Virus record (IMG/VR): IMGVR_UViG_3300045988_143938
DNA from: a virus
Strand: one strand, 5' to 3'
DNA length: 64,000 bases
Shown: piece after piece, positions 4,073-34,967 of the stretch
Position numbering within the stretch: position 1 is the stretch's first letter
Layout: every line of letters starts with the position of its first letter
Made by a program: the position numbers and the translations under genes
The notes under the pieces: model-generated
Databases searched by the model: none
What the model saw: the letters and a program-made list of their open reading frames with translations, nothing else
What the model was told of the DNA's origin: nothing

Positions 4073-4552
4073 TCATTCATAGCTATATTTTAGGCACATG
4101 TAAGACCATATTTTATTATCTCCCGGCATCCAGTCTTCATCGTCAAACCAAAAGGCATATGCCGCTTCGATAATATCCTCTCCGTCCAAAACCTTGCACA
4201 GATCGGCCCAAAAAGCATTAAAGGCTACGTATTTATCCCAGCGTGTACATCCTGACGGGAAATTCTTGTTCTTGGTGGCTTCCTCTATCTGATCTACCGT
4301 CCAATATCCACCCTTGTGTTCGTTGCCTTCCTTGTCGGTGTACTCCATATCGGCAACATCGTGCATGGCAAACTCCTCGTTGTAATGGCATCCGCTCATG
4401 GCACCGTACAGCTTCCTTAACGCCAGCCAATACTTTTTAGGCTCTTTCTCTTTCATCGGCTCCAGCACATCCGAAAGGATGCGGGTGCTCTCTATCATTA
4501 CAGCTTCACCCTTGCCTTTGCCGTACTTTTCTATCAATTCATAAATAGTCAT
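4073..4552 (-). CDS. hypothetical phage protein
   Basis: ORF track, 159 aa; last gene of the long minus-strand block. Confidence 0.65.
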   Translation of the reverse strand: MTIYELIEKYGKGKGEAVMIESTRILSDVLEPMKEKEPKKYWLALRKLYGAMSGCHYNEEFAMHDVADMEYTDKEGNEHKGGYWTVDQIEEATKNKNFPSGCTRWDKYVAFNAFWADLCKVLDGEDIIEAAYAFWFDDEDWMPGDNKIWSYMCLKYSYE

Positions 4553-24705: not shown

Positions 24706-27700
24706 TTATATATTAATCTTTCGTTTCCCTTTGTCTATAACCATACCCACTAATCCCATAAACTCCTTTAACACAGCCAAGTTGGCTTCTGTGTTTTGAG
24801 CACTTCTTAGCGTATTGTTAGCTATCGCTCTTAATTGCGTTAGTTGCTGTTCTGCGAGAATATTGTACTTTGGGAAAATTTCATTTCCTAATTTTTCAAG
24901 AAGAGCACGTTTTACACTTACATCCTGTCGGATGCTATTCAGGTATGAACCTAAAAGGTTTGCCGTATCTTCTGTTACACCTTGTATTCCTTTTGTTAAT
25001 CCGGAAGTGGAAGATTCCCCGGTAGCCGTAAGCGCTCCTCCGGTAGCTTTATCAAAGGTTTCAAGGAAAGATTGTGAGGCATCTATCATGGCTTTCCCCT
25101 CATTGTCGAAAAAGTCTTTTATAGCCCCTGCTGCAACAGCGCCATTATCTTGAATATCCGTAAACTCCTTAAACAGGCCTTTTTCTCCGAAAAGTTTATC
25201 CTGTAACTTTTCAAACATGGGCTGTATTACCAAGTTCTTTAATATGTTGTTGGCAACACTTCGCATGATGTTGTTCACTACGTTGTCAAAAGCCTGCGCT
25301 GCATCTTCTCCGTTGGCAAAGGCTTCCGTTAACGCATCACTTATCTGACTTGCCCAATCCTGAAAATCTATTCCGTACAAATCTTTGGTAAGGTCTTCCA
25401 CGAAATAGGCGATTTGCTCGTTCAGTTCCGCAAGCTGGTTCTTATAGTCTTGTATCTTTCCTGCATCAGATTTCTTTTTCCCTTCTTCGTTTCTTAATTG
25501 GCCCTCTATCTCTGCACGTTGAGAAACAAGTCCCACGTATTGGGCCTGATATTGTTTAAGGACGCTGTTATCAAGTTCCTTTCCTACGCCAACCTTTTCC
25601 AATGCTTCCAGCGCTTCCTTGTCTACACCTATTTTAAAGTTTAATCCCATAAAACGCTGCATCCCGGCAGGAAGGCTCTCCATTGATTTTATCCGTTTTT
25701 TTAATTCTTCCACATAGTCCAAACCCTCGTCTTTTAATACTCGGAATTGCATTTTATAGCTTTCGGTAAGCGAACTCCCGGCGCGTTTAACTTGTTCTTC
25801 CAACTGTTCATATAGCAATATGGCACGCTCTATACTTTCGTCTCCACCAAGCGATCTGTCTATGGATTTTCCTAATTGATCGTAGGCGGACTTTAATTCC
25901 TCAACTCTTTGTTTGCTACGCTGGATACTTCTTTCAAGTCTTTTGTCATGTAGTTGCGCAATGCTTCCGATAAAACCGGTTATCCCACCGACTATACCGG
26001 CGGCTCCTTGCATTATAGCCATAGGATTTCCACTGGTAATTCCGGCAAAAAGGGTTCCTCCGCTTTGAGCAATGTTTAATAGTCCTCCTCCAACACTTTG
26101 AATTGTACTTAACGCGTCGGCCATACTGTCATTTCCCAAAGTATCGAACATAGAACTTAGATTACCTAATGTTCCAATGAGTAGATCAGACATTTCTATG
26201 ATCTCCCCAAGTCCTATGCGTACCTTGTCAGATGAGCCAGTTTGCTTGTCTTGTGCATCAGTAACATTTTTTTCGGCATCCGCTAAAGTCTTTAGTTTAG
26301 GTACTAATTTATCAACAACCTTAGTCCGATAAGATAAACCACTATCCGTTCTTTTTGTTTCAGTATGGCTCGTGTCTGAAACGCCAGTAATCACCTTGCC
26401 CCCGTTTTGGATAAACGCAAGTTCTTGTTGAGCTTTTTTCAACTCTTTGGTAGCTTCTACGTACTCCTTTATTCCATTTGATAACGTCTTAAAAGGATTT
26501 CTGCTCTCGCTCTCATCGCGCAGCTTCTTTAATACATTGATAAGCTCTTTGAACTCGTTGACTTTTAGGCTTTGCCCGGTAGTGTTTTTAAAATCCTCTA
26601 AATTTTTAATTAACCTATCAAGCGTTGCGGAAGACAATCGGTCAAGATCATCGAAGGTTTTTGCCCAATCTTCTGAACTTTTGAATTGCTCAAATTTGAT
26701 TGATGCGACATCTTCGCCCGCTTTCTCTTTCCTTTGTGTTATAAGTCTATCGGTAGCTTCTTCTCCAAACTTCTTTCTTCGACTTTCAATATCCGCTAAA
26801 TCTTTTTGAAGATTGCGTTCAATGTCTTCTATCTTTTGGGAATAGTCCTTATAATCTTCTATCATGCCTAAAAGATTATCAAGGCTTTCCGACCGCATTT
26901 TCTTGCCCTCCTCGCTTATTGCTTGATACAGCTTTAAAACGGCTCCTTCTCCGAATTGCTTCTTTACATCATCCTCTTTCATGGCAAGGACATCAGTAAT
27001 GGAAAACTTGCTTCCTGTCTTTTTTAGGGCATCTCCAAGCTGATTGCGGAAATCTTCAACAATGCTTTCAAATGATATGTTTTCACCGAAAGCAATGTTC
27101 ATGGAAAGCGCTTTGTTTCCGGTCGCTTCAAATAGCTTTTTATACAAGTCCCATTTCTCTCCGGCTTGAGAGACATATTTCTCTATTTCCTTTAAGGCGT
27201 TATCGGCTTCTTTTTTTGCGTTTTCAATCTGCTCTTTGTCTATCTTAACGCCAAGAGAAACATATAAATCTTTTTGCTTCTCCTTGCTTTGATCCAGCTG
27301 GTTTTGGATATACTTGTACGCCTTACTCGGATCGCTCAAGTCTAAATTTACCCCCTTGCTATCAAATACTGGTGCAAATTCGGGTATATTCTTTACTCTT
27401 TGGGCGGCCGATTCTTCCCCCTCTATTTTCCTCCATTTCTCGTAGCTGGATATAGCTTTTTCTATGAGGTCGGCACGATTCTTCCATTGCTCGGCAATAG
27501 GGTCTTTGGCTGTATCTGTTGACTTTTCTCTTCCGCCTAACGTTTCGTATATTTTCCTTGTCGTATCAAGTTCTTTGTTATAGGACGCTAATTGTTTTTC
27601 TGAAAATTTATTATCCGGATTAAGGCTGTCTATTTTCTTTTTTAAATCACTTATATTAGTAGACAACCTGCTCATGTATTCTTCATACGATTCACTCTCT

Positions 27701-29667
27701 TTAGGCTTTATGACATTCAAATCTCCAGCGAGCAAGTTTGCTTCCTTTTCCCAATCAGTCAATGGTTTACTTATATCTATTTGGCTCATCGAATGATAAG
27801 ACTGTCTGGCTGTATCTATAATGTTAGCCAAGTCTAAACTTTGCTTTTCAAGTTCCAACAGTCTGTTTCTTGCTTTAGTAATATCCTCCGGTTTATATTT
27901 GGCAAAGGATAGTTCTCTTCCTGTCTCGTCAAACCTTCTATATCCACCCTCTCTGATAATCCCGGCAAGCCTTTCTCTTTCAACATCTACGCTCTGCTTT
28001 TGTATTTGCGCATTTGCCATGGTGCCGATAAATTGTTTTTTGTACAATTCCTTTTGCTCTTGAGAAAGTTTTCGCATCTTCTCAACAGAAAGGGATATTG
28101 CTACTCCGTATTTGTCTGTTTGGGCTACTGCATCCTTGAAGGTGTTAGATAAGTTCTTGGTTATACGTCCTAATTCCCTGCTTTCTTCTGCGCTTTTGTT
28201 GGCTTTTTGGCTAAGGGTTTCGTATCGGTCTATAAGTCCGTCAACGGCCTTGTTCCCCTTCATCTTATCGTTCGTATCGGAAATAGTCTTATTTAAATCT
28301 GTAATAACTTCTGTTGTAGTTTTGACTTCCTCTCGAAACATAACCAATGCTCCTACTACGGTTCCGATAAGAGTTATAATCCAAATTATTGGATTCTTTT
28401 TCATTGCAGCGTTTAACGCATTTTGCACAACCAGTAATCCCTTAGTTGCGACATTTGTCAACATAACAGCAGTTCTATACGAACCATATACAAACGCCAA
28501 CATGCCAAGTATATCGGCAACGGTTTCCCAATGTTTCATCAGCTTGGTAAGTATTTCCAAACTATCAGAAAGGACGCCGCTATTACCCTCTGCAATGTCT
28601 GCCATCATTACATCCCAAGCATCTTGCAAGTTGCTCCATTTACCCGCAAGACTTTCTGCGAGAGCTTCCTGCATGTTGTAGAATTTCCCGCCTTCATTGG
28701 TTAACTCCCAAAGAACATCTTTCACCATGCCAAAGCTGACTTCTTTTCGGCTGATCTTATCGAATACGTCTCCAGCACTGACAACTTTATTTTCAAGAAC
28801 GGTAAACCGTTTCGCCAGCTCATCAACTAACGGAATGCCTGCTTCTGTGAACTGTCTAAGCTCTTGCCCGCGAAGAAACGCGGCACTACGAACTTGTCCG
28901 TATGCCAATATGATACGTCCCATATCAACACCGACACCCGCGGAAATATCAGCAAGCCGCTTAGTCGTATCGTAAAGCTCTTCGTAGGGGATACTATATG
29001 CAGAAAGCTGTTTTGCGTATGACGCTAATTCCTTAAACTGGAACGGGGAAGCCACCGCTAACTCCTTGATGCGGTTGAATATCGTTTCAGCTTTCATGCT
29101 ATCCCCGATAATAGAGGTCAGTGCGATGCGTTGTTTTTGGAACTCCCCACCAATGGTATATAATCCCCTAACAAAACGCTCTACTGTATATATGGAATAC
29201 ACGTTGGCGATTTGATTTCTTAACTCTCCGGCTATTCGAGACTGGGAAGACATGGTTGTATTTGCCCGCTTCATAGCGGAATTATGCGTATCTGCGGCTT
29301 TTGCTGCTTGTAAACGGACGTTTCTAAGCTGCTCAAGGGCTTTTTGAGAGTTGGCGTAAGCGTCGGCACGCATTATTTGAGAAACACCCCTCATGGCTCT
29401 TAATTCGCTTGTATTCACACCTTGCCCTTTAAAGGTTTCTGTAAGCTTCTTGATACTCTCACTATCCACCTCAAGCTTCACCTTGTACGTCTTGTTTTTC
29501 AGCAAGGAATCTACTTTATCCTCAATCTCTTTTACATCAACCTTCAATCCTACTTTCGCGCTGACGGTTGCGTGCATGTTGACGAGCTTTTTTTTGATAG
29601 CTTCGTATTCTTGTGGTGTATAGTCTTTCAGGTGAATCCCAAAATTCAAATTTCCGAGGTCTGCCAT
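24706..29667 (-). CDS. tail tape measure protein
   Basis: 1653 aa, coiled-coil rich; RLADISAGVGVDMGRIILAYGQVRSAAFLRGQELRQFTEAGIPL core; TM/Gly-rich segments. Confidence 0.9.
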   Translation of the reverse strand: MADLGNLNFGIHLKDYTPQEYEAIKKKLVNMHATVSAKVGLKVDVKEIEDKVDSLLKNKTYKVKLEVDSESIKKLTETFKGQGVNTSELRAMRGVSQIMRADAYANSQKALEQLRNVRLQAAKAADTHNSAMKRANTTMSSQSRIAGELRNQIANVYSIYTVERFVRGLYTIGGEFQKQRIALTSIIGDSMKAETIFNRIKELAVASPFQFKELASYAKQLSAYSIPYEELYDTTKRLADISAGVGVDMGRIILAYGQVRSAAFLRGQELRQFTEAGIPLVDELAKRFTVLENKVVSAGDVFDKISRKEVSFGMVKDVLWELTNEGGKFYNMQEALAESLAGKWSNLQDAWDVMMADIAEGNSGVLSDSLEILTKLMKHWETVADILGMLAFVYGSYRTAVMLTNVATKGLLVVQNALNAAMKKNPIIWIITLIGTVVGALVMFREEVKTTTEVITDLNKTISDTNDKMKGNKAVDGLIDRYETLSQKANKSAEESRELGRITKNLSNTFKDAVAQTDKYGVAISLSVEKMRKLSQEQKELYKKQFIGTMANAQIQKQSVDVERERLAGIIREGGYRRFDETGRELSFAKYKPEDITKARNRLLELEKQSLDLANIIDTARQSYHSMSQIDISKPLTDWEKEANLLAGDLNVIKPKESESYEEYMSRLSTNISDLKKKIDSLNPDNKFSEKQLASYNKELDTTRKIYETLGGREKSTDTAKDPIAEQWKNRADLIEKAISSYEKWRKIEGEESAAQRVKNIPEFAPVFDSKGVNLDLSDPSKAYKYIQNQLDQSKEKQKDLYVSLGVKIDKEQIENAKKEADNALKEIEKYVSQAGEKWDLYKKLFEATGNKALSMNIAFGENISFESIVEDFRNQLGDALKKTGSKFSITDVLAMKEDDVKKQFGEGAVLKLYQAISEEGKKMRSESLDNLLGMIEDYKDYSQKIEDIERNLQKDLADIESRRKKFGEEATDRLITQRKEKAGEDVASIKFEQFKSSEDWAKTFDDLDRLSSATLDRLIKNLEDFKNTTGQSLKVNEFKELINVLKKLRDESESRNPFKTLSNGIKEYVEATKELKKAQQELAFIQNGGKVITGVSDTSHTETKRTDSGLSYRTKVVDKLVPKLKTLADAEKNVTDAQDKQTGSSDKVRIGLGEIIEMSDLLIGTLGNLSSMFDTLGNDSMADALSTIQSVGGGLLNIAQSGGTLFAGITSGNPMAIMQGAAGIVGGITGFIGSIAQLHDKRLERSIQRSKQRVEELKSAYDQLGKSIDRSLGGDESIERAILLYEQLEEQVKRAGSSLTESYKMQFRVLKDEGLDYVEELKKRIKSMESLPAGMQRFMGLNFKIGVDKEALEALEKVGVGKELDNSVLKQYQAQYVGLVSQRAEIEGQLRNEEGKKKSDAGKIQDYKNQLAELNEQIAYFVEDLTKDLYGIDFQDWASQISDALTEAFANGEDAAQAFDNVVNNIMRSVANNILKNLVIQPMFEKLQDKLFGEKGLFKEFTDIQDNGAVAAGAIKDFFDNEGKAMIDASQSFLETFDKATGGALTATGESSTSGLTKGIQGVTEDTANLLGSYLNSIRQDVSVKRALLEKLGNEIFPKYNILAEQQLTQLRAIANNTLRSAQNTEANLAVLKEFMGLVGMVIDKGKRKINI

Positions 29668-29675
29668 GTCGATTG

Positions 29676-29933
29676 TTATTTTGTGTCCTTTTTAATAGCG
29701 TTAACGCCGTTTACTATAAAATCATTAAGAGATATCCTTTGTCCTTTAGCTTCCTGCTCTTTCCTTTTTGCCTCCCATTTTTTTGTCAGCTCTTTCATCT
29801 CTTTGGAAGTGTGCATTCCCTTGTCTACCTTATCGTCATTATTGTACACCACAATAGGAGCATCGCATATAAGAAGCTCATACAGAGCATTGGTAAGCAC
29901 CCAGTCCATGTACCAGTTAGGGATATTCACCAT
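29676..29933 (-). CDS. tail assembly chaperone, downstream (-1 frame) part
   Basis: Lies in the -1 frame of 29960-30436; that frame is open from the A9 run to this ORF. Confidence 0.55.
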   Translation of the reverse strand: MVNIPNWYMDWVLTNALYELLICDAPIVVYNNDDKVDKGMHTSKEMKELTKKWEAKRKEQEAKGQRISLNDFIVNGVNAIKKDTK

Positions 29934-29959
29934 TCCCCAAAAGAGAACGAGAGGGCGGG

Positions 29960-30436
29960 TTAATTCGGGATGTTTTTCTCCGTTTGCAAAGGCTGCTCCT
30001 GCCGAAGTTCTTGAAGGATACGATCTGCTTCCTTTCTCGTCATCGTCATCACTGTGTCCTTCATTCCTGTCAAGAACATGGTAATGTTCAAGTATTGAAG
30101 TCTCTGAAATTCCACTTTTTTTTTACCAAGAGCGACGACACTTGTCAGTTCTTGGTCTGTATATTTCTTCCACAGCATGCGCCAATGTATCCAATGGAAA
30201 AGCCTTATTTTCCACCAGTTATTCAGGATTATAAGAGACGCACATCGGGCTGTCACCTCATCGTCTTGTTTACATGATATAAAGGTGTGTGTCAGCTTTC
30301 TTATCGTTCCCCGGTGAAGCCACTTTATTCCAATCTCCTTTTCGCGAAGAGATACATAGTCTGTGCTGTTTTCAAGCACTTCATCAAGTCTTTCCTGTTC
30401 TACCGAAGTAGGTTGAGTTATCGTTTTGTCGTTCAT
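29960..30436 (-). CDS. tail assembly chaperone (gpG-like by position)
   Basis: Between major tail and tape measure genes; probable start MNDKTI. Confidence 0.55.
   Translation of the reverse strand: MNDKTITQPTSVEQERLDEVLENSTDYVSLREKEIGIKWLHRGTIRKLTHTFISCKQDDEVTARCASLIILNNWWKIRLFHWIHWRMLWKKYTDQELTSVVALGKKKVEFQRLQYLNITMFLTGMKDTVMTMTRKEADRILQELRQEQPLQTEKNIPN
30116..30124 (-). promoter_or_regulatory. candidate -1 frameshift site (A9; A AAA AAA)
   Basis: GGT AAA AAA AAA GTG in 0 frame; -1 frame has no stop for 146 codons to 29676. Confidence 0.45.
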
Positions 30437-30492
30437 AATGTTTTGAGGTGTAAAAAGAAAAGGCGGCGGCATAAAGCTCACCGCCATTAATA

Positions 30493-30762
30493 TTAGGTAC
30501 CAGTACCAGCCTGTGTAACTTCTACTGCTGCTGCTTTGCTTGCGGTAGAAATGTTCACAATGGCAGTTCTTGCAGATGCTCCATTATTTGCATCAACCTT
30601 GACCGTTACCACTTTGCCGCTTACGGAAGTCTTGCACCATGTTTCTGTTGATGAAGCAGATACTGGGCTTTCTTCTGTTGTAGCTGTAATGGTCTTCCCT
30701 GTATTATCAGCGCTGCTGACGAAAGACAGGGAAGTAGGAGCTACGGTCAGGAGGCTTTTTTT
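30493..30762 (-). CDS. -1 frame C-terminal extension of major tail protein, BACON/Ig-like domain
   Basis: A AAA AAA heptamer (30756-30762) 2 codons before the stop; -1 frame gives 87 aa: SLLTVAPTSLSFVSSADNTGKTITATTEESPVSASSTETWCKTSVSGKVVTVKVDANNGASARTAIVNISTASKAAAVEVTQAGTGT; no ATG, so absent from ORF track. Confidence 0.65.
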   Translation of the reverse strand, partial: KKSLLTVAPTSLSFVSSADNTGKTITATTEESPVSASSTETWCKTSVSGKVVTVKVDANNGASARTAIVNISTASKAAAVEVTQAGTGT

Positions 30763-33021: not shown

Positions 33022-34233
33022 TTATTTACCCTTTATGTTCAAGTAGTAGAACCAACGAACCTTGTTAGGAACAACCAATCCGGTAACTTCCGATTTGATA
33101 GTCTGCGTCATGGTTTCGTCGTTGAATACTTGGCGAATCAGAGTGCGGCCGCCGTCATACAATGCTGTACGTGCACCCGGAGTTTCCATGAAGATAGGAC
33201 GTCCGCATTGCACGTCTCCCAAATCTTCGTTCGGGACATACGCCATAACTCCTTCCTCGAAGTTCTGCAAGGTCTTGTAGTTGATTTTCTGCGTATCCTT
33301 GTCGTAGCTTTCTACTACGGAGATAGAATCAATTACTCTGATTTTGGCACCGATACGAGCTTCGATAAACGCCTTGATTGCTTCGTCAGGAACAAGATTT
33401 GCAAAAGCAAGCTGCATGTCTTTGTCGGAAATGTCCGGACGGTTGGCGACTGTGTACATCTGACGGAAATACGGCAGATTGATGATGTCGTCCCATGTGG
33501 TCTTGCTTACTTCCCAGTGCCCCTGTGGTGCAAAGTCTTTCTGTCGGCTGTCTCGGTTGACGTCACGCATTACCTTGATAGGATCAATTGTAGTACCTAC
33601 GGCTGCTTTTTGTGTGACAACTCCGGTTGCATCAACCTTATTGTACCAATGAGAATCTTTAATGTTCTTCTTGGGAACGCCAAAGTCTATTGACAAAGAG
33701 ATGCCAAGAGGATTATTAGCCGCATCAATAATCAGGTTTCCTTTTTTGGATACGACTTGGTTTCTCTGATAAAGGAACGTGTTATAGTTACCTCCAAGCA
33801 AGCTGTCTACTCCATTAAACAGAAGTTCCATGATTGTAGCCTCTATTTCCGGTGTAGAACTGCCGATAGCATCCATCAGCATCATCTTTTCACGCAAGAT
33901 TTTACGGCTTAACGTAATCTCGTGCTTGAAAGTAGGCAGTCCGCCCATTTGCAATGAAAGGCCGTCAGTTGACTTGGTAGCACCGTCACTGTCAATATCT
34001 ACGTAGGTAGCCAGCGTGTACGGGCGAATTGTTGCCTCAATCTGTTCGTAAGTAGGATTCAGAGGAATGTTAGGATTTAACGGGAAACCCATTTGGGCAA
34101 AAGTCTGTTCTGCGTTATACTTATCCGCAAACATGTCGTTAATCCATGCCTCCAACGGTTTGTTGCCGGTATATCCCATAGCAGCAAGCCCTCTTCCTAC
34201 AATATCGTAAAATTCTTTGTTTCTTGTGTACAT
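33022..34233 (-). CDS. major capsid protein
   Basis: 403 aa, preceded by scaffold-like and decoration-like genes (lambda D/E-like order). Confidence 0.8.
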   Translation of the reverse strand: MYTRNKEFYDIVGRGLAAMGYTGNKPLEAWINDMFADKYNAEQTFAQMGFPLNPNIPLNPTYEQIEATIRPYTLATYVDIDSDGATKSTDGLSLQMGGLPTFKHEITLSRKILREKMMLMDAIGSSTPEIEATIMELLFNGVDSLLGGNYNTFLYQRNQVVSKKGNLIIDAANNPLGISLSIDFGVPKKNIKDSHWYNKVDATGVVTQKAAVGTTIDPIKVMRDVNRDSRQKDFAPQGHWEVSKTTWDDIINLPYFRQMYTVANRPDISDKDMQLAFANLVPDEAIKAFIEARIGAKIRVIDSISVVESYDKDTQKINYKTLQNFEEGVMAYVPNEDLGDVQCGRPIFMETPGARTALYDGGRTLIRQVFNDETMTQTIKSEVTGLVVPNKVRWFYYLNIKGK

Positions 34234-34247
34234 ATTATCCCCCTTTC

Positions 34248-34967
34248 TTATTCATTGGATTCGCGCACAAACTCAATCATAGGTAATTGTGCTTCTACTG
34301 ATTTAGGAATACCGCCACCCGCTACGCGGTCCGCGTATATTCTGCCTGCTCTTACTACGGCACATGTTGCAGAAATGCAACCTTCGGGGATGCAGACATC
34401 CTCAAATACAAGGCCGTTTACGTCACTTAAGTTTCCGCTTGAAGTTGCACCTTGCTTGGTAAGTTCCATTGTCCCTGTTACTCCGGTGCTTCCGGGGATA
34501 AACATGTAGGCCGGAACCATTGCAGCTGTCTTTTGCGTGAATGTCAGCACTGCGCCACTTCTTTTCACATCCCACTCTGTGAAAGTGGCCTTGCCGCCTT
34601 CAATCTTTGTAGCGACCAGTTCGGGGGTTGTTTCCGAAGCGCTTGTTACTGCGATTGAGTAGCTTTTGCTCCCCAATACAAAGGATAAATCTCCGTTGGC
34701 GGTAGCCTTGTTGGTGATAGTCAGCGTTACTACCGCTTTTACACCTGTCACTCCCTCCGCAGTAATCACCTCTACCTGTTTGCCGGGGCCGTTGAACTTA
34801 ACCATTGTGCCAGCATGTATAATATCGCCAGGGTTTAATCCCATTCCGGCAACATCAATCATACCGCCTCCTTGATACAGTTCTCGAACTCTCGACCATA
34901 CAGGAAAATTACCGCCAAATTCCGACCGGAATTGACCGATAGTGTTGAATGTTCCTAATTGTCTCAT
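34248..34967 (-). CDS. head decoration-like protein
   Basis: Position directly upstream of capsid gene; Gly/Thr-rich central insert. Confidence 0.45.
   Translation of the reverse strand: MRQLGTFNTIGQFRSEFGGNFPVWSRVRELYQGGGMIDVAGMGLNPGDIIHAGTMVKFNGPGKQVEVITAEGVTGVKAVVTLTITNKATANGDLSFVLGSKSYSIAVTSASETTPELVATKIEGGKATFTEWDVKRSGAVLTFTQKTAAMVPAYMFIPGSTGVTGTMELTKQGATSSGNLSDVNGLVFEDVCIPEGCISATCAVVRAGRIYADRVAGGGIPKSVEAQLPMIEFVRESNE

Follow-up and report, generated by a model that had tools for sequence, protein, structure and literature searches.

A conserved A-run slip site at the end of a siphophage tail tube gene and the out-of-frame BACON domain that it would append

Introduction

How can a phage make use of a protein domain that lies behind the stop codon of a structural gene, in another reading frame and with no ATG of its own? 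This question is raised by a locus on the minus strand of a 64,000-nt stretch of viral DNA (the window) from the IMG/VR record IMGVR_UViG_3300045988_143938, in which a tail tube gene ends close behind a run of seven A residues (A7) and the -1 frame stays open well beyond the tube stop codon. An earlier note on this DNA had read the arrangement as a -1 frameshift that fuses a BACON or immunoglobulin-like (Ig-like) domain to the major tail protein.

Frameshift-derived C-terminal Ig-like domains are well documented on phage structural proteins (PMC5009743). Phage adherence to mucus and epithelia is proposed to depend on Ig-like decorations, and in a 2026 study that used domain scans of predicted open reading frames (ORFs) BACON was the commonest of these domains in adherent gut phages (PMC13370021). 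Here we describe the slip site, the domain behind it and the RNA downstream of it, and we weigh the routes by which the domain could be expressed. The evidence points to slippage on the A run, probably by the ribosome, as the way in which the domain would be joined to the tube protein.

Results

A conserved slip site and an open -1 frame

The tube gene ends ...GCG TTC TTA ACA AAA AAA GCC TCC TGA, and the heptamer A AAA AAA, at which a slip would take place, stands two codons before this zero-frame TGA (the coordinates of all features are collected in Table 1). Read from the last A of the run (30756), the -1 frame opens with SLLTVAPTSLSF and closes with ...VEVTQAGTGT; the full translation of its 87 codons is SLLTVAPTSLSFVSSADNTGKTITATTEESPVSASSTETWCKTSVSGKVVTVKVDANNGASARTAIVNISTASKAAAVEVTQAGTGT, and SLLTVAPTSLSFVSSADNTGK is one peptide of this 87-aa product. 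The nearest upstream stop in the -1 frame lies 8 codons before 30756, and the -1 ORF overlaps the A7 run. The extension holds no ATG, and its first ATG, GTG or TTG codon is a GTG at extension codon 49, in the middle of the encoded domain, so that a start there would halve the BACON domain. In neighboring structural genes the -1 frame is interrupted by 0.069 stops per codon, and 87 open codons would arise by chance with P ~0.002; A7 runs are scarcer in the window than expected (35 observed against 57.6 +/- 10.7). The gene end, the position of the run, its heptamer register and the ATG-free 87-codon frame with its stop, all of which had been proposed in the earlier note, were re-read from the sequence and are correct.

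The decisive support for the site is its conservation. With the 187-aa core of the tube protein as query, 115 loci were confirmed in IMG/VR, and the best 80, with 79-99% amino acid identity, were analyzed. In 80/80 of these the A7 run stands in the same register, is followed by G and has the TGA two codons on, and in 80/80 the -1 ORF is open for 86-87 codons; with more distant relatives included, the frame is open in about 90 loci. The 80 loci and the window together encode 26 distinct extension proteins, among which there is a single indel, of exactly 3 nt. The -1 ORF is under purifying selection, and in that frame only. Among 36 unique extension sequences, variable sites fall on positions 1, 2 and 3 of the -1-frame codons in the proportion 26/25/67, and synonymous variation (pS) is 0.418 against a nonsynonymous value (pN) of 0.103, a pN/pS of 0.25; the other two frames give pN/pS values of 1.40 and 1.42, with 1-7 stops each.

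The arrangement extends to relatives of lower identity that were reached through the protein database (L099-L104, 63-70% tube identity), where the site reads ACA AAA AAA GCC or, with nine A residues (A9), CTG AAA AAA AAA GCC, and where the -1 BACON ORF is clearly diverged, yet open. The run and the open -1 frame that the earlier note had pointed out are thus kept in close and more remote relatives alike. As a control for the heptamer, we compared 53 unique tube genes, with pairwise nucleotide identity down to 60%, that share 11 conserved Lys columns. Both slip-site Lys codons are AAA in 53/53 genes, whereas all of the Lys columns away from the slip site (9/9) mix AAA and AAG; among fourfold-degenerate columns of the tube gene with an invariant amino acid, 0/32 have an invariant third base. 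Selection on the nucleotides themselves therefore maintains the A run. When viral contigs were scanned with two further tube homologues, P0077 (...KKAS) and P0089 (...KKKAA), no loci were found.

A tail tube protein and a BACON domain

The 189-aa zero-frame product has no match at E <= 1 in Pfam and PHROG scans, and its identity was approached through structure. The query for AlphaFold2 (AF2) was P0002, a natural in-frame variant that is 98% identical to the fusion encoded in the window, with 50 homologues, and the resulting model has a mean predicted local distance difference test score (pLDDT) of 84.2. Its best Foldseek matches in the PDB, at probability 1.00, are the tail tube proteins of Douge, Chi, Bxb1, YSD1, Sf11, T1 and JBD30, and several of the PDB matches are siphophage tubes with C-terminal Ig-like domains. 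In BFVD the top entries are named major tail or tail tube, and among them is a 'Major tail protein extension' from the lactococcal 936 group. The gene order points the same way: the major capsid gene is followed by four small genes, the tube gene, a chaperone pair (two small ORFs) and the tape measure gene, with no sheath gene. By predicted fold and gene order, then, the 189-aa protein is a siphophage tail tube protein, for which we claim no sequence-family membership, and the label of major tail protein in the earlier note is borne out on the same two grounds.

The extension is a BACON domain. Pfam PF13004 (BACON) matches it with 31.5 bits (gathering score 25, E 1.7e-7), and the viral model PF19190 (BACON_2) covers residues 3-84 with 24.7 bits, just below its gathering score of 25; both families appear in the precomputed annotation of P0018, whose extension is more diverged. 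In the AF2 model the extension forms a beta-sandwich with block pLDDT values of 88-96 over residues ~190-270. When the extension was compared with the sequences in the PDB, nothing significant was returned, the best E value being 0.11, with the BACON-bearing GH5 protein 3zmr at E 0.15. The BACON/Ig-like assignment that the earlier note had made from the residue pattern therefore holds in a profile search, with PF13004 above its gathering score. By analogy with other Ig-like decorations, weak binding of glycans, on the host surface or in mucus, would be expected of the domain; the carbohydrate- or mucin-binding role proposed in the earlier note goes back to the domain family.

Deposited phages were searched at the DNA and protein level, and only relatives of the LoVEphage type surfaced. 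These nearest deposited homologues, LoVEphage and its relatives, share ~25% amino acid identity with the tube protein, are annotated as hypothetical and lack the extension; the hosts of the nearest deposited relatives are Bacteroides and Phocaeicola. The tail module in the window is that of an uncultivated siphovirus, a distant relative of Bacteroides and Phocaeicola phages, and its host presumably belongs to the Bacteroidota.

Conserved RNA structure downstream of the heptamer

The 185 nt that follow the A run in the window alone fold with a minimum free energy (MFE) of -55.9 kcal/mol, and a 103-nt sub-segment past the run has a z-score of -4.1 against shuffled sequences. Two elements, helix A and hairpin B, are both present in the single-sequence MFE fold, and these together with helix C are present in the RNAalifold consensus of 22 diverse sequences. 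The 7 bp of helix A are paired in 22/22 sequences with zero variation, and 94% of the cells of hairpin B are paired. Helix C shows exchange of pairs: pair 72-153 is CG in 19 and UA in 3 sequences, a compensatory change, and pair 75-150 is UA in 14, CG in 3, AU in 1 and broken in 4.

Codon usage in the extension marks the same elements. In 30 codon columns of the extension a degenerate amino acid is invariant across 42 unique sequences, and the only columns that are also invariant in nucleotides (42/42) are CTG, ACC, TCC, GGG, ACG and GTC. All six lie in helix A or hairpin B: the invariant third positions of CTG and ACC pair in helix A with those of ACG and GTC, and TCC and GGG belong to hairpin B. 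The association of invariant sites with helices has a Fisher p of 5e-5, which is optimistic, since helix A was noticed from the same codons. On this evidence helix A, with the conserved RNA domain that it closes, is a good candidate for a stimulator of the slip. Two further pairings were considered and rejected: a helix GUAGCU/AGCUAC (nt 19-24 with 78-83) from the first single-sequence fold, which is not conserved, and a continuation of helix A toward the heptamer (nt 7-11 with 164-168), which is intact in the window and broken in most relatives, with pair 10-165 formed in only 6/22 sequences.

A second A-run site in the tail chaperone genes

The tail assembly chaperone pair next to the tube gene has an A-run site of its own. 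Its A9 run lies in the first ORF (29960..30487, 175 aa), ~640 nt downstream of the tube A7; the -1 frame opens exactly at the run, at the TAA of GG TAA A, continues for ~147 codons to 29676 and absorbs the 85-aa ORF at 29676..29933. Nearly all of the relatives examined, L099 and L102 among them, retain both the run and the open frame behind it. A single IMG/VR contig, L028, has eight A residues (A8) instead of A9 here (at 4198), from which length variants or miscalls at A runs would occur in assemblies at roughly the 1% level. As judged from the sequence, the chaperone A9 is the expected -1 frameshift of the gpG/gpGT type, and the phage lineage would thus rely on A-run slippage in its host twice within 650 nt.

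In-frame variants, loss and origin of the extension

Tube-BACON fusions that are encoded in frame, of 272-274 aa, are present in the protein database in three lineages (P0002, P0013 and P0018), and their contigs, from Logan and ENA assemblies, carry A8 in place of A7 (L082, L083, L084 and L185). The in-frame genes encode exactly the fusion that a slip would yield in the window and lend it independent support as a real protein. The A8 contigs include some of ~32 and 37.6 kb, and cluster tables list contigs of up to ~51 kb. The chaperone A9 and the other A runs are normal in these contigs, which argues against a general homopolymer artefact. Among distinct cluster sequences the A8 fusions are minor (9 against 142 and 36 against 650). 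Tail decoration may vary heritably through the A8 genotypes, either on/off or in dosage, or these genotypes may be assembly errors. In one lineage, seen in two samples (L186, at 1201-2030, and L187), the run is A8, a CTG to CCG change destroys both the zero-frame UGA and helix A, and a GAA to TAA nonsense change follows after 28 extension residues, together with additional nonsynonymous changes; judging from these lesions, the BACON domain appears to be decaying in this lineage.

An exhaustive HMMER search with the tube-BACON fusion as query placed the extension among other C-terminal additions. P0078, a tube homologue of 45% identity, has an in-frame C-terminal domain of BACON-like pattern with no Pfam match. 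Many proteins of 230-260 aa end in an in-frame BACON domain, which is up to 58% identical to the window extension, and begin with different N-terminal domains of unknown function (PHROGs 17745 and 14600). In six proteins (P0109, P0120, P0128, P0136, P0141 and P0153) an N-terminus of PHROG 17745 or 14600 is joined to BACON by a similar linker (..LTVAP/LVVTP/LTVSP..), and by their sequences these are probably other tube families of Bacteroidota phages that share a mobile BACON module. P0081 (470 aa) is a tube homologue with 46% identity over residues 1-172. Its in-frame C-terminal extension of ~290 aa matches nothing in Pfam or PHROG and, to judge by sequence, is a different decoration on the same tube core.

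Homologues without an extension are known from L085 (60% identity), from L086-L098 (~37-39% identity to L085) and from the LoVEphage group. In these a GC-rich hairpin comes immediately behind the tube stop, with the chaperone gene after it. The only terminator-like site between 29600 and 31800 of the window lies after the extension, with none at the tube stop; the homologous hairpin abuts the tube stop in the extension-less relatives, so that in the window the 261-nt BACON segment separates the tube C-terminus from the hairpin. The tube family inherited its C-terminal motif, ...AFL(T/K)K(K), from its ancestor. The simplest history is that a BACON module landed out of frame behind this Lys- and A-rich C-terminus and that slippage on the run was then fixed; such a course of events has been proposed generally for phage Ig-like domains (PMC5009743).

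Distant tubes of the P0092 lineage (L105, L106, L112 and L113) end ...YLKKKAA and have an A9/A10 run with the -1 frame open for 14-23 codons only. Because of this lineage we dropped the idea that every C-terminal A run in the tube family marks a frameshift. Many tube genes of the related set L114-L184 have the +1 frame open for ~90 codons upstream of the stop, which may be an effect of composition.

Features of the locus and neighboring genes

The features described here are listed in Table 1. Directly upstream of the major capsid gene, at 34248-34967 on the minus strand, lies a gene for a 239-aa protein with a weak C-terminal PHROG match to phrog_909 ('major head protein'), which may be a decoration or auxiliary head protein. 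Within the tape measure gene there are A7 or A8 runs at 25696-25702, 26267-26273, 27211-27217 and 29588-29595, and at least the last of these, an A8, is kept in close relatives. No tRNA genes were found in the window.

Table 1. Features of the tail module and its surroundings, as positions in the window
Feature	Coordinates	Strand	Basis or remark
Major capsid protein (Phage_cap_E)	33022..34233		
Tail tube gene, zero-frame product 189 aa	30747..31316	-	ORF, fold, gene order
Slippery heptamer A AAA AAA, then G	30756..30762	-	X XXY YYZ register, zero-frame codons AAA AAA
-1 extension, 87 codons and TAA (30493-95)	30493..30756	-	open frame without own ATG
BACON domain, extension residues 3-84	30505..30750	-	Pfam profiles, AF2 model
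Helix A, 5' arm UGACCGU, candidate stimulator	30743..30749	-	6 nt past heptamer; includes zero-frame UGA
Helix A, 3' arm ACGGUCA, candidate stimulator	30600..30606	-	extension codons 51-53
Hairpin B, CUUCCCUG (30727-30734) with CAGGGAAG (30694-30701)	30694..30734	-	inside domain closed by helix A
Helix C, ACCAUU (30688-30693) with AGUGGU (30608-30613)	30608..30693	-	RNAalifold; abuts helix A
Terminator-like hairpin (30486-30464) and T tract	30454..30486	-	6 nt past extension stop
Tail assembly chaperone pair with own -1 site	29676..30487	-	GGT AAA AAA AAA GTG, A9 at 30116-30124
Tape measure protein, 1653 aa (TMP_3, phrog_9959)	24706..29667	-	

Discussion

Proposed mechanism and alternative explanations

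We propose that most ribosomes would stop at the zero-frame UGA and release the 189-aa tube subunit, and that a fraction would shift one base backward at A AAA AAA, with the two tRNA-Lys re-pairing in tandem, and then read on as AGC CUC CUG.... The slipped product would be a 274-aa tube-BACON protein with an 87-residue addition and the junction ...AFLTKK|SLLTVAP...; to find the junction peptide ...LTKK-SLLTVAP that the earlier note had suggested looking for in virions, a protease other than trypsin is needed, because trypsin cuts at KK|S. With a tube core common to both forms, the two could co-assemble into a tail that bears sub-stoichiometric, outward-facing BACON domains, and the RNA domain closed by helix A would probably promote the slip. 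A -1 ribosomal frameshift of this tandem re-pairing type accords with the register of the run, the overlap of the -1 ORF with the site and the conservation at synonymous positions. The slip register, the coding signature in the -1 frame, the BACON profile match and the tube fold all support the frameshift fusion that the earlier note had proposed. It is very probable that the extension is expressed as a tube fusion by some form of slippage on the A run, and we regard the explanation as a whole, ribosomal slippage included, as probable; the choice of the ribosome over the polymerase, slip efficiency, virion incorporation, stoichiometry in the tail, the role of the RNA structure and the ligand are matters that we infer.

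Several observations weigh against this explanation or some part of it. In E. coli the heptamer A_AAA_AAA is far less prone to shifting than A_AAA_AAG (PMC5009743), and the fact that AAG never occurs at the slip site also fits transcriptional slippage, which depends on the length of the run. Helix A was recognized post hoc, and neither helix A nor hairpin B shows convincing covariation, although helix A is also predicted independently by the single-sequence fold. Some other cause could underlie the invariant sites; the zero-frame UGA accounts in part for CTG, but not for ACC, ACG and GTC. The lineage with A8 and a nonsense codon (L186/L187) indicates that the BACON domain is dispensable, and the P0092 lineage, which has A9/A10 and no extension, indicates that an A run alone is not diagnostic.

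If the slip were transcriptional, the polymerase would stutter on A7 (template T7) and add one A, and mRNAs with A8 would give the same fusion. The site is indeed a pure homopolymer, A9 is found in some relatives and at the chaperone site, and slippage in vivo is efficient on runs of 9 A or T (PMC5009743); beside such documented 9-mers, the A7 of the window and of most relatives is short. The last Lys codon is never AAG, a restriction that matters for the length of a run, but AAG would be tolerated, or would even be better, in a ribosomal shift of the E. coli type. A separate host tRNA-Lys(CUU), if present, would make the absence of AAG expected under ribosomal shifting too. Against a transcriptional slip stand the constant X XXY YYZ register of the run and the conserved helix 6 nt downstream, which has the spacing expected of a ribosomal stimulator and would be irrelevant to a polymerase. 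We consider transcriptional slippage unlikely, and the slip somewhat more probably ribosomal. Still less favored, and very unlikely in our judgment, is a heritable exchange of A7 and A8 by replication slippage as the main route, with bare tubes from A7, fully decorated tubes from A8 and no programmed slippage. All 80 of the IMG/VR contigs carry A7. Were the domain expressed from infrequent A8 genotypes alone, a pN/pS of 0.25 (pS 0.42) and the AAA AAA codons could hardly be sustained across the clade; this route leaves the conserved downstream helices unexplained, and homopolymer miscalls are possible in some assemblies, even though in-frame A8 genotypes, a minority in the clusters, do occur in three lineages whose other A runs are normal.

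Two accounts would dispense with the fusion altogether. The extension could be the dead remnant of an ancestral in-frame tube-BACON gene that lost one A, leaving an untranslated and decaying pseudo-domain, and in-frame tube-domain fusions in relatives and the decay that L186/L187 do show lend it some color. The 42 unique extension sequences are nevertheless free of stops, their indel is exactly 3 nt, third-position variation dominates with a pN/pS of 0.25 in the -1 frame only, and the frame is open at 63% tube identity despite a diverged extension; this account is extremely unlikely, and the coding signature effectively refutes it. It is scarcely credible either that the BACON ORF is translated separately, from an internal or non-canonical start, into a small protein of its own. 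Gene callers do give a 79-aa ORF with a GTG start (L099-L101), a 54-aa BACON ORF (L104) and the 82-aa P0099, but no start codon is conserved: where L099 has GTG, the window has GTA and L102 has GTT, and the first possible start codon in the window lies inside the domain. Moreover, the -1 ORF opens only 8 codons before the junction and overlaps the A7 run, and a lone 87-aa domain would have no evident means of attachment to the virion.

Ribosomal slippage and heritable run-length change could also act together. In such a two-level control, a -1 slip helped by the long-range helix (7 bp, ~135-nt span, enclosing the first half of the BACON coding sequence) would give low basal decoration, and A7/A8 exchange would give sub-populations that are fully decorated or have lost the domain, as in L186. 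We hold this to be distinctly unlikely; if true, it would mean phase-variable virion adhesiveness in a prevalent clade of gut phages, and ORF-based surveys of 'adherent' phages would miss hidden adhesins.

Significance

Domain scans of ORFs cannot see or attribute the BACON domain of the window, as it lacks a start codon and is part of the tube protein. The clade concerned is large, with protein clusters of up to 650 distinct sequences. The locus offers a compact, natural -1 recoding cassette for Bacteroidota, comprising the heptamer, a 6-nt spacer, conserved helices and a second A-run site close by. Translation signals in Bacteroidota differ from those of E. coli, and we know of few characterized frameshift sites in this phylum. 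The known picture of phage tail decoration is unchanged, and the mechanism will not surprise a phage specialist; the value of the locus is as a clean test bed for recoding in Bacteroidota and as a case, in an abundant clade, of a domain that is hidden from ORF-based adhesin surveys.

Comparison with known systems

A close parallel is SPP1, in which gp17.1* carries an 87-residue FN3 extension that is reached by a +1 shift at CCC UAA, a rare codon followed by a stop; gp17.1 and gp17.1* occur at ~3:1 and co-assemble, and the FN3 extension is dispensable (PMC6316719, PMC8718954). In both SPP1 and the window, recoding at the end of the tube gene gives an 87-residue addition of Ig fold to a shared N-terminus, and both phages have a -1 chaperone frameshift (for SPP1, PMC6316719, PMC8718954). 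SPP1 differs in its +1 direction, its FN3 domain, its Firmicute host and its lack of sequence homology with the window, where a -1 slip on A AAA AAA would add BACON in what is presumably a Bacteroidota host. In the Listeria phages PSA, A118 and A500, +1 shifts yield a second form of the major tail protein, and Lactobacillus phage A2 makes an Ig-like extension through a -1 shift (PMC5009743). These four phages resemble the window in having a C-terminally extended second structural protein, and the slip sites, domains and hosts differ. We take the -1-extended proteins of A2 to include its major tail protein, and A2 to be the -1 precedent for such a protein. The earlier note had named SPP1 and PSA as precedents, and they do provide frameshift-extended major tail proteins, but both shift by +1 and not by -1 (PMC5009743, PMC6316719). 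In the lactococcal 936 group, a frameshift at the end of the major tail protein gives TpeX, which places carbohydrate-binding modules along the tail in sub-stoichiometric amounts (PMC6669499); there the addition follows an in-frame Ig-like adhesin domain and the total reaches 470-530 aa, whereas in the window one 87-aa BACON domain comes directly after the tube core.

The Big_2 domain of lambda gpV, the corresponding domain of T5 and the Big_1 domain of YSD1 show the same tube with an outward C-terminal Ig-like domain (PMC8718954), and these domains stand on every subunit, in frame and without recoding. The lambda gpG/gpGT pair resembles the chaperone A9 of this phage as -1 recoding in the tail module; its product is an assembly chaperone outside the virion, whereas the event at the tube A7 concerns the tube subunit. 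BACON-bearing proteins of gut phages, crAss-like and others, have been reported to mediate adherence to the epithelial layer (PMC13370021, PMC8008677, PMC6949934). They share the domain family with the window, and the domain likewise occurs in structural modules of Bacteroidota phages, but they are encoded in ordinary ORFs and were found by domain scans. Among the papers searched on BACON, frameshifting and tails, none describes a BACON domain reached by a frameshift from a tube gene, and the supplements of PMC13370021, searched for peptides of the window protein, gave no match.

The window thus has the architecture of SPP1, PSA, A118, A2 and TpeX, in which an Ig-like or carbohydrate-binding module is added through recoding where the tube gene ends, here presumably to a fraction of the subunits. 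What sets it apart from these known cases is the BACON family, the A7 slip site in the -1 direction, the probable host phylum and a candidate long-range stimulator, and the mechanism itself is known.

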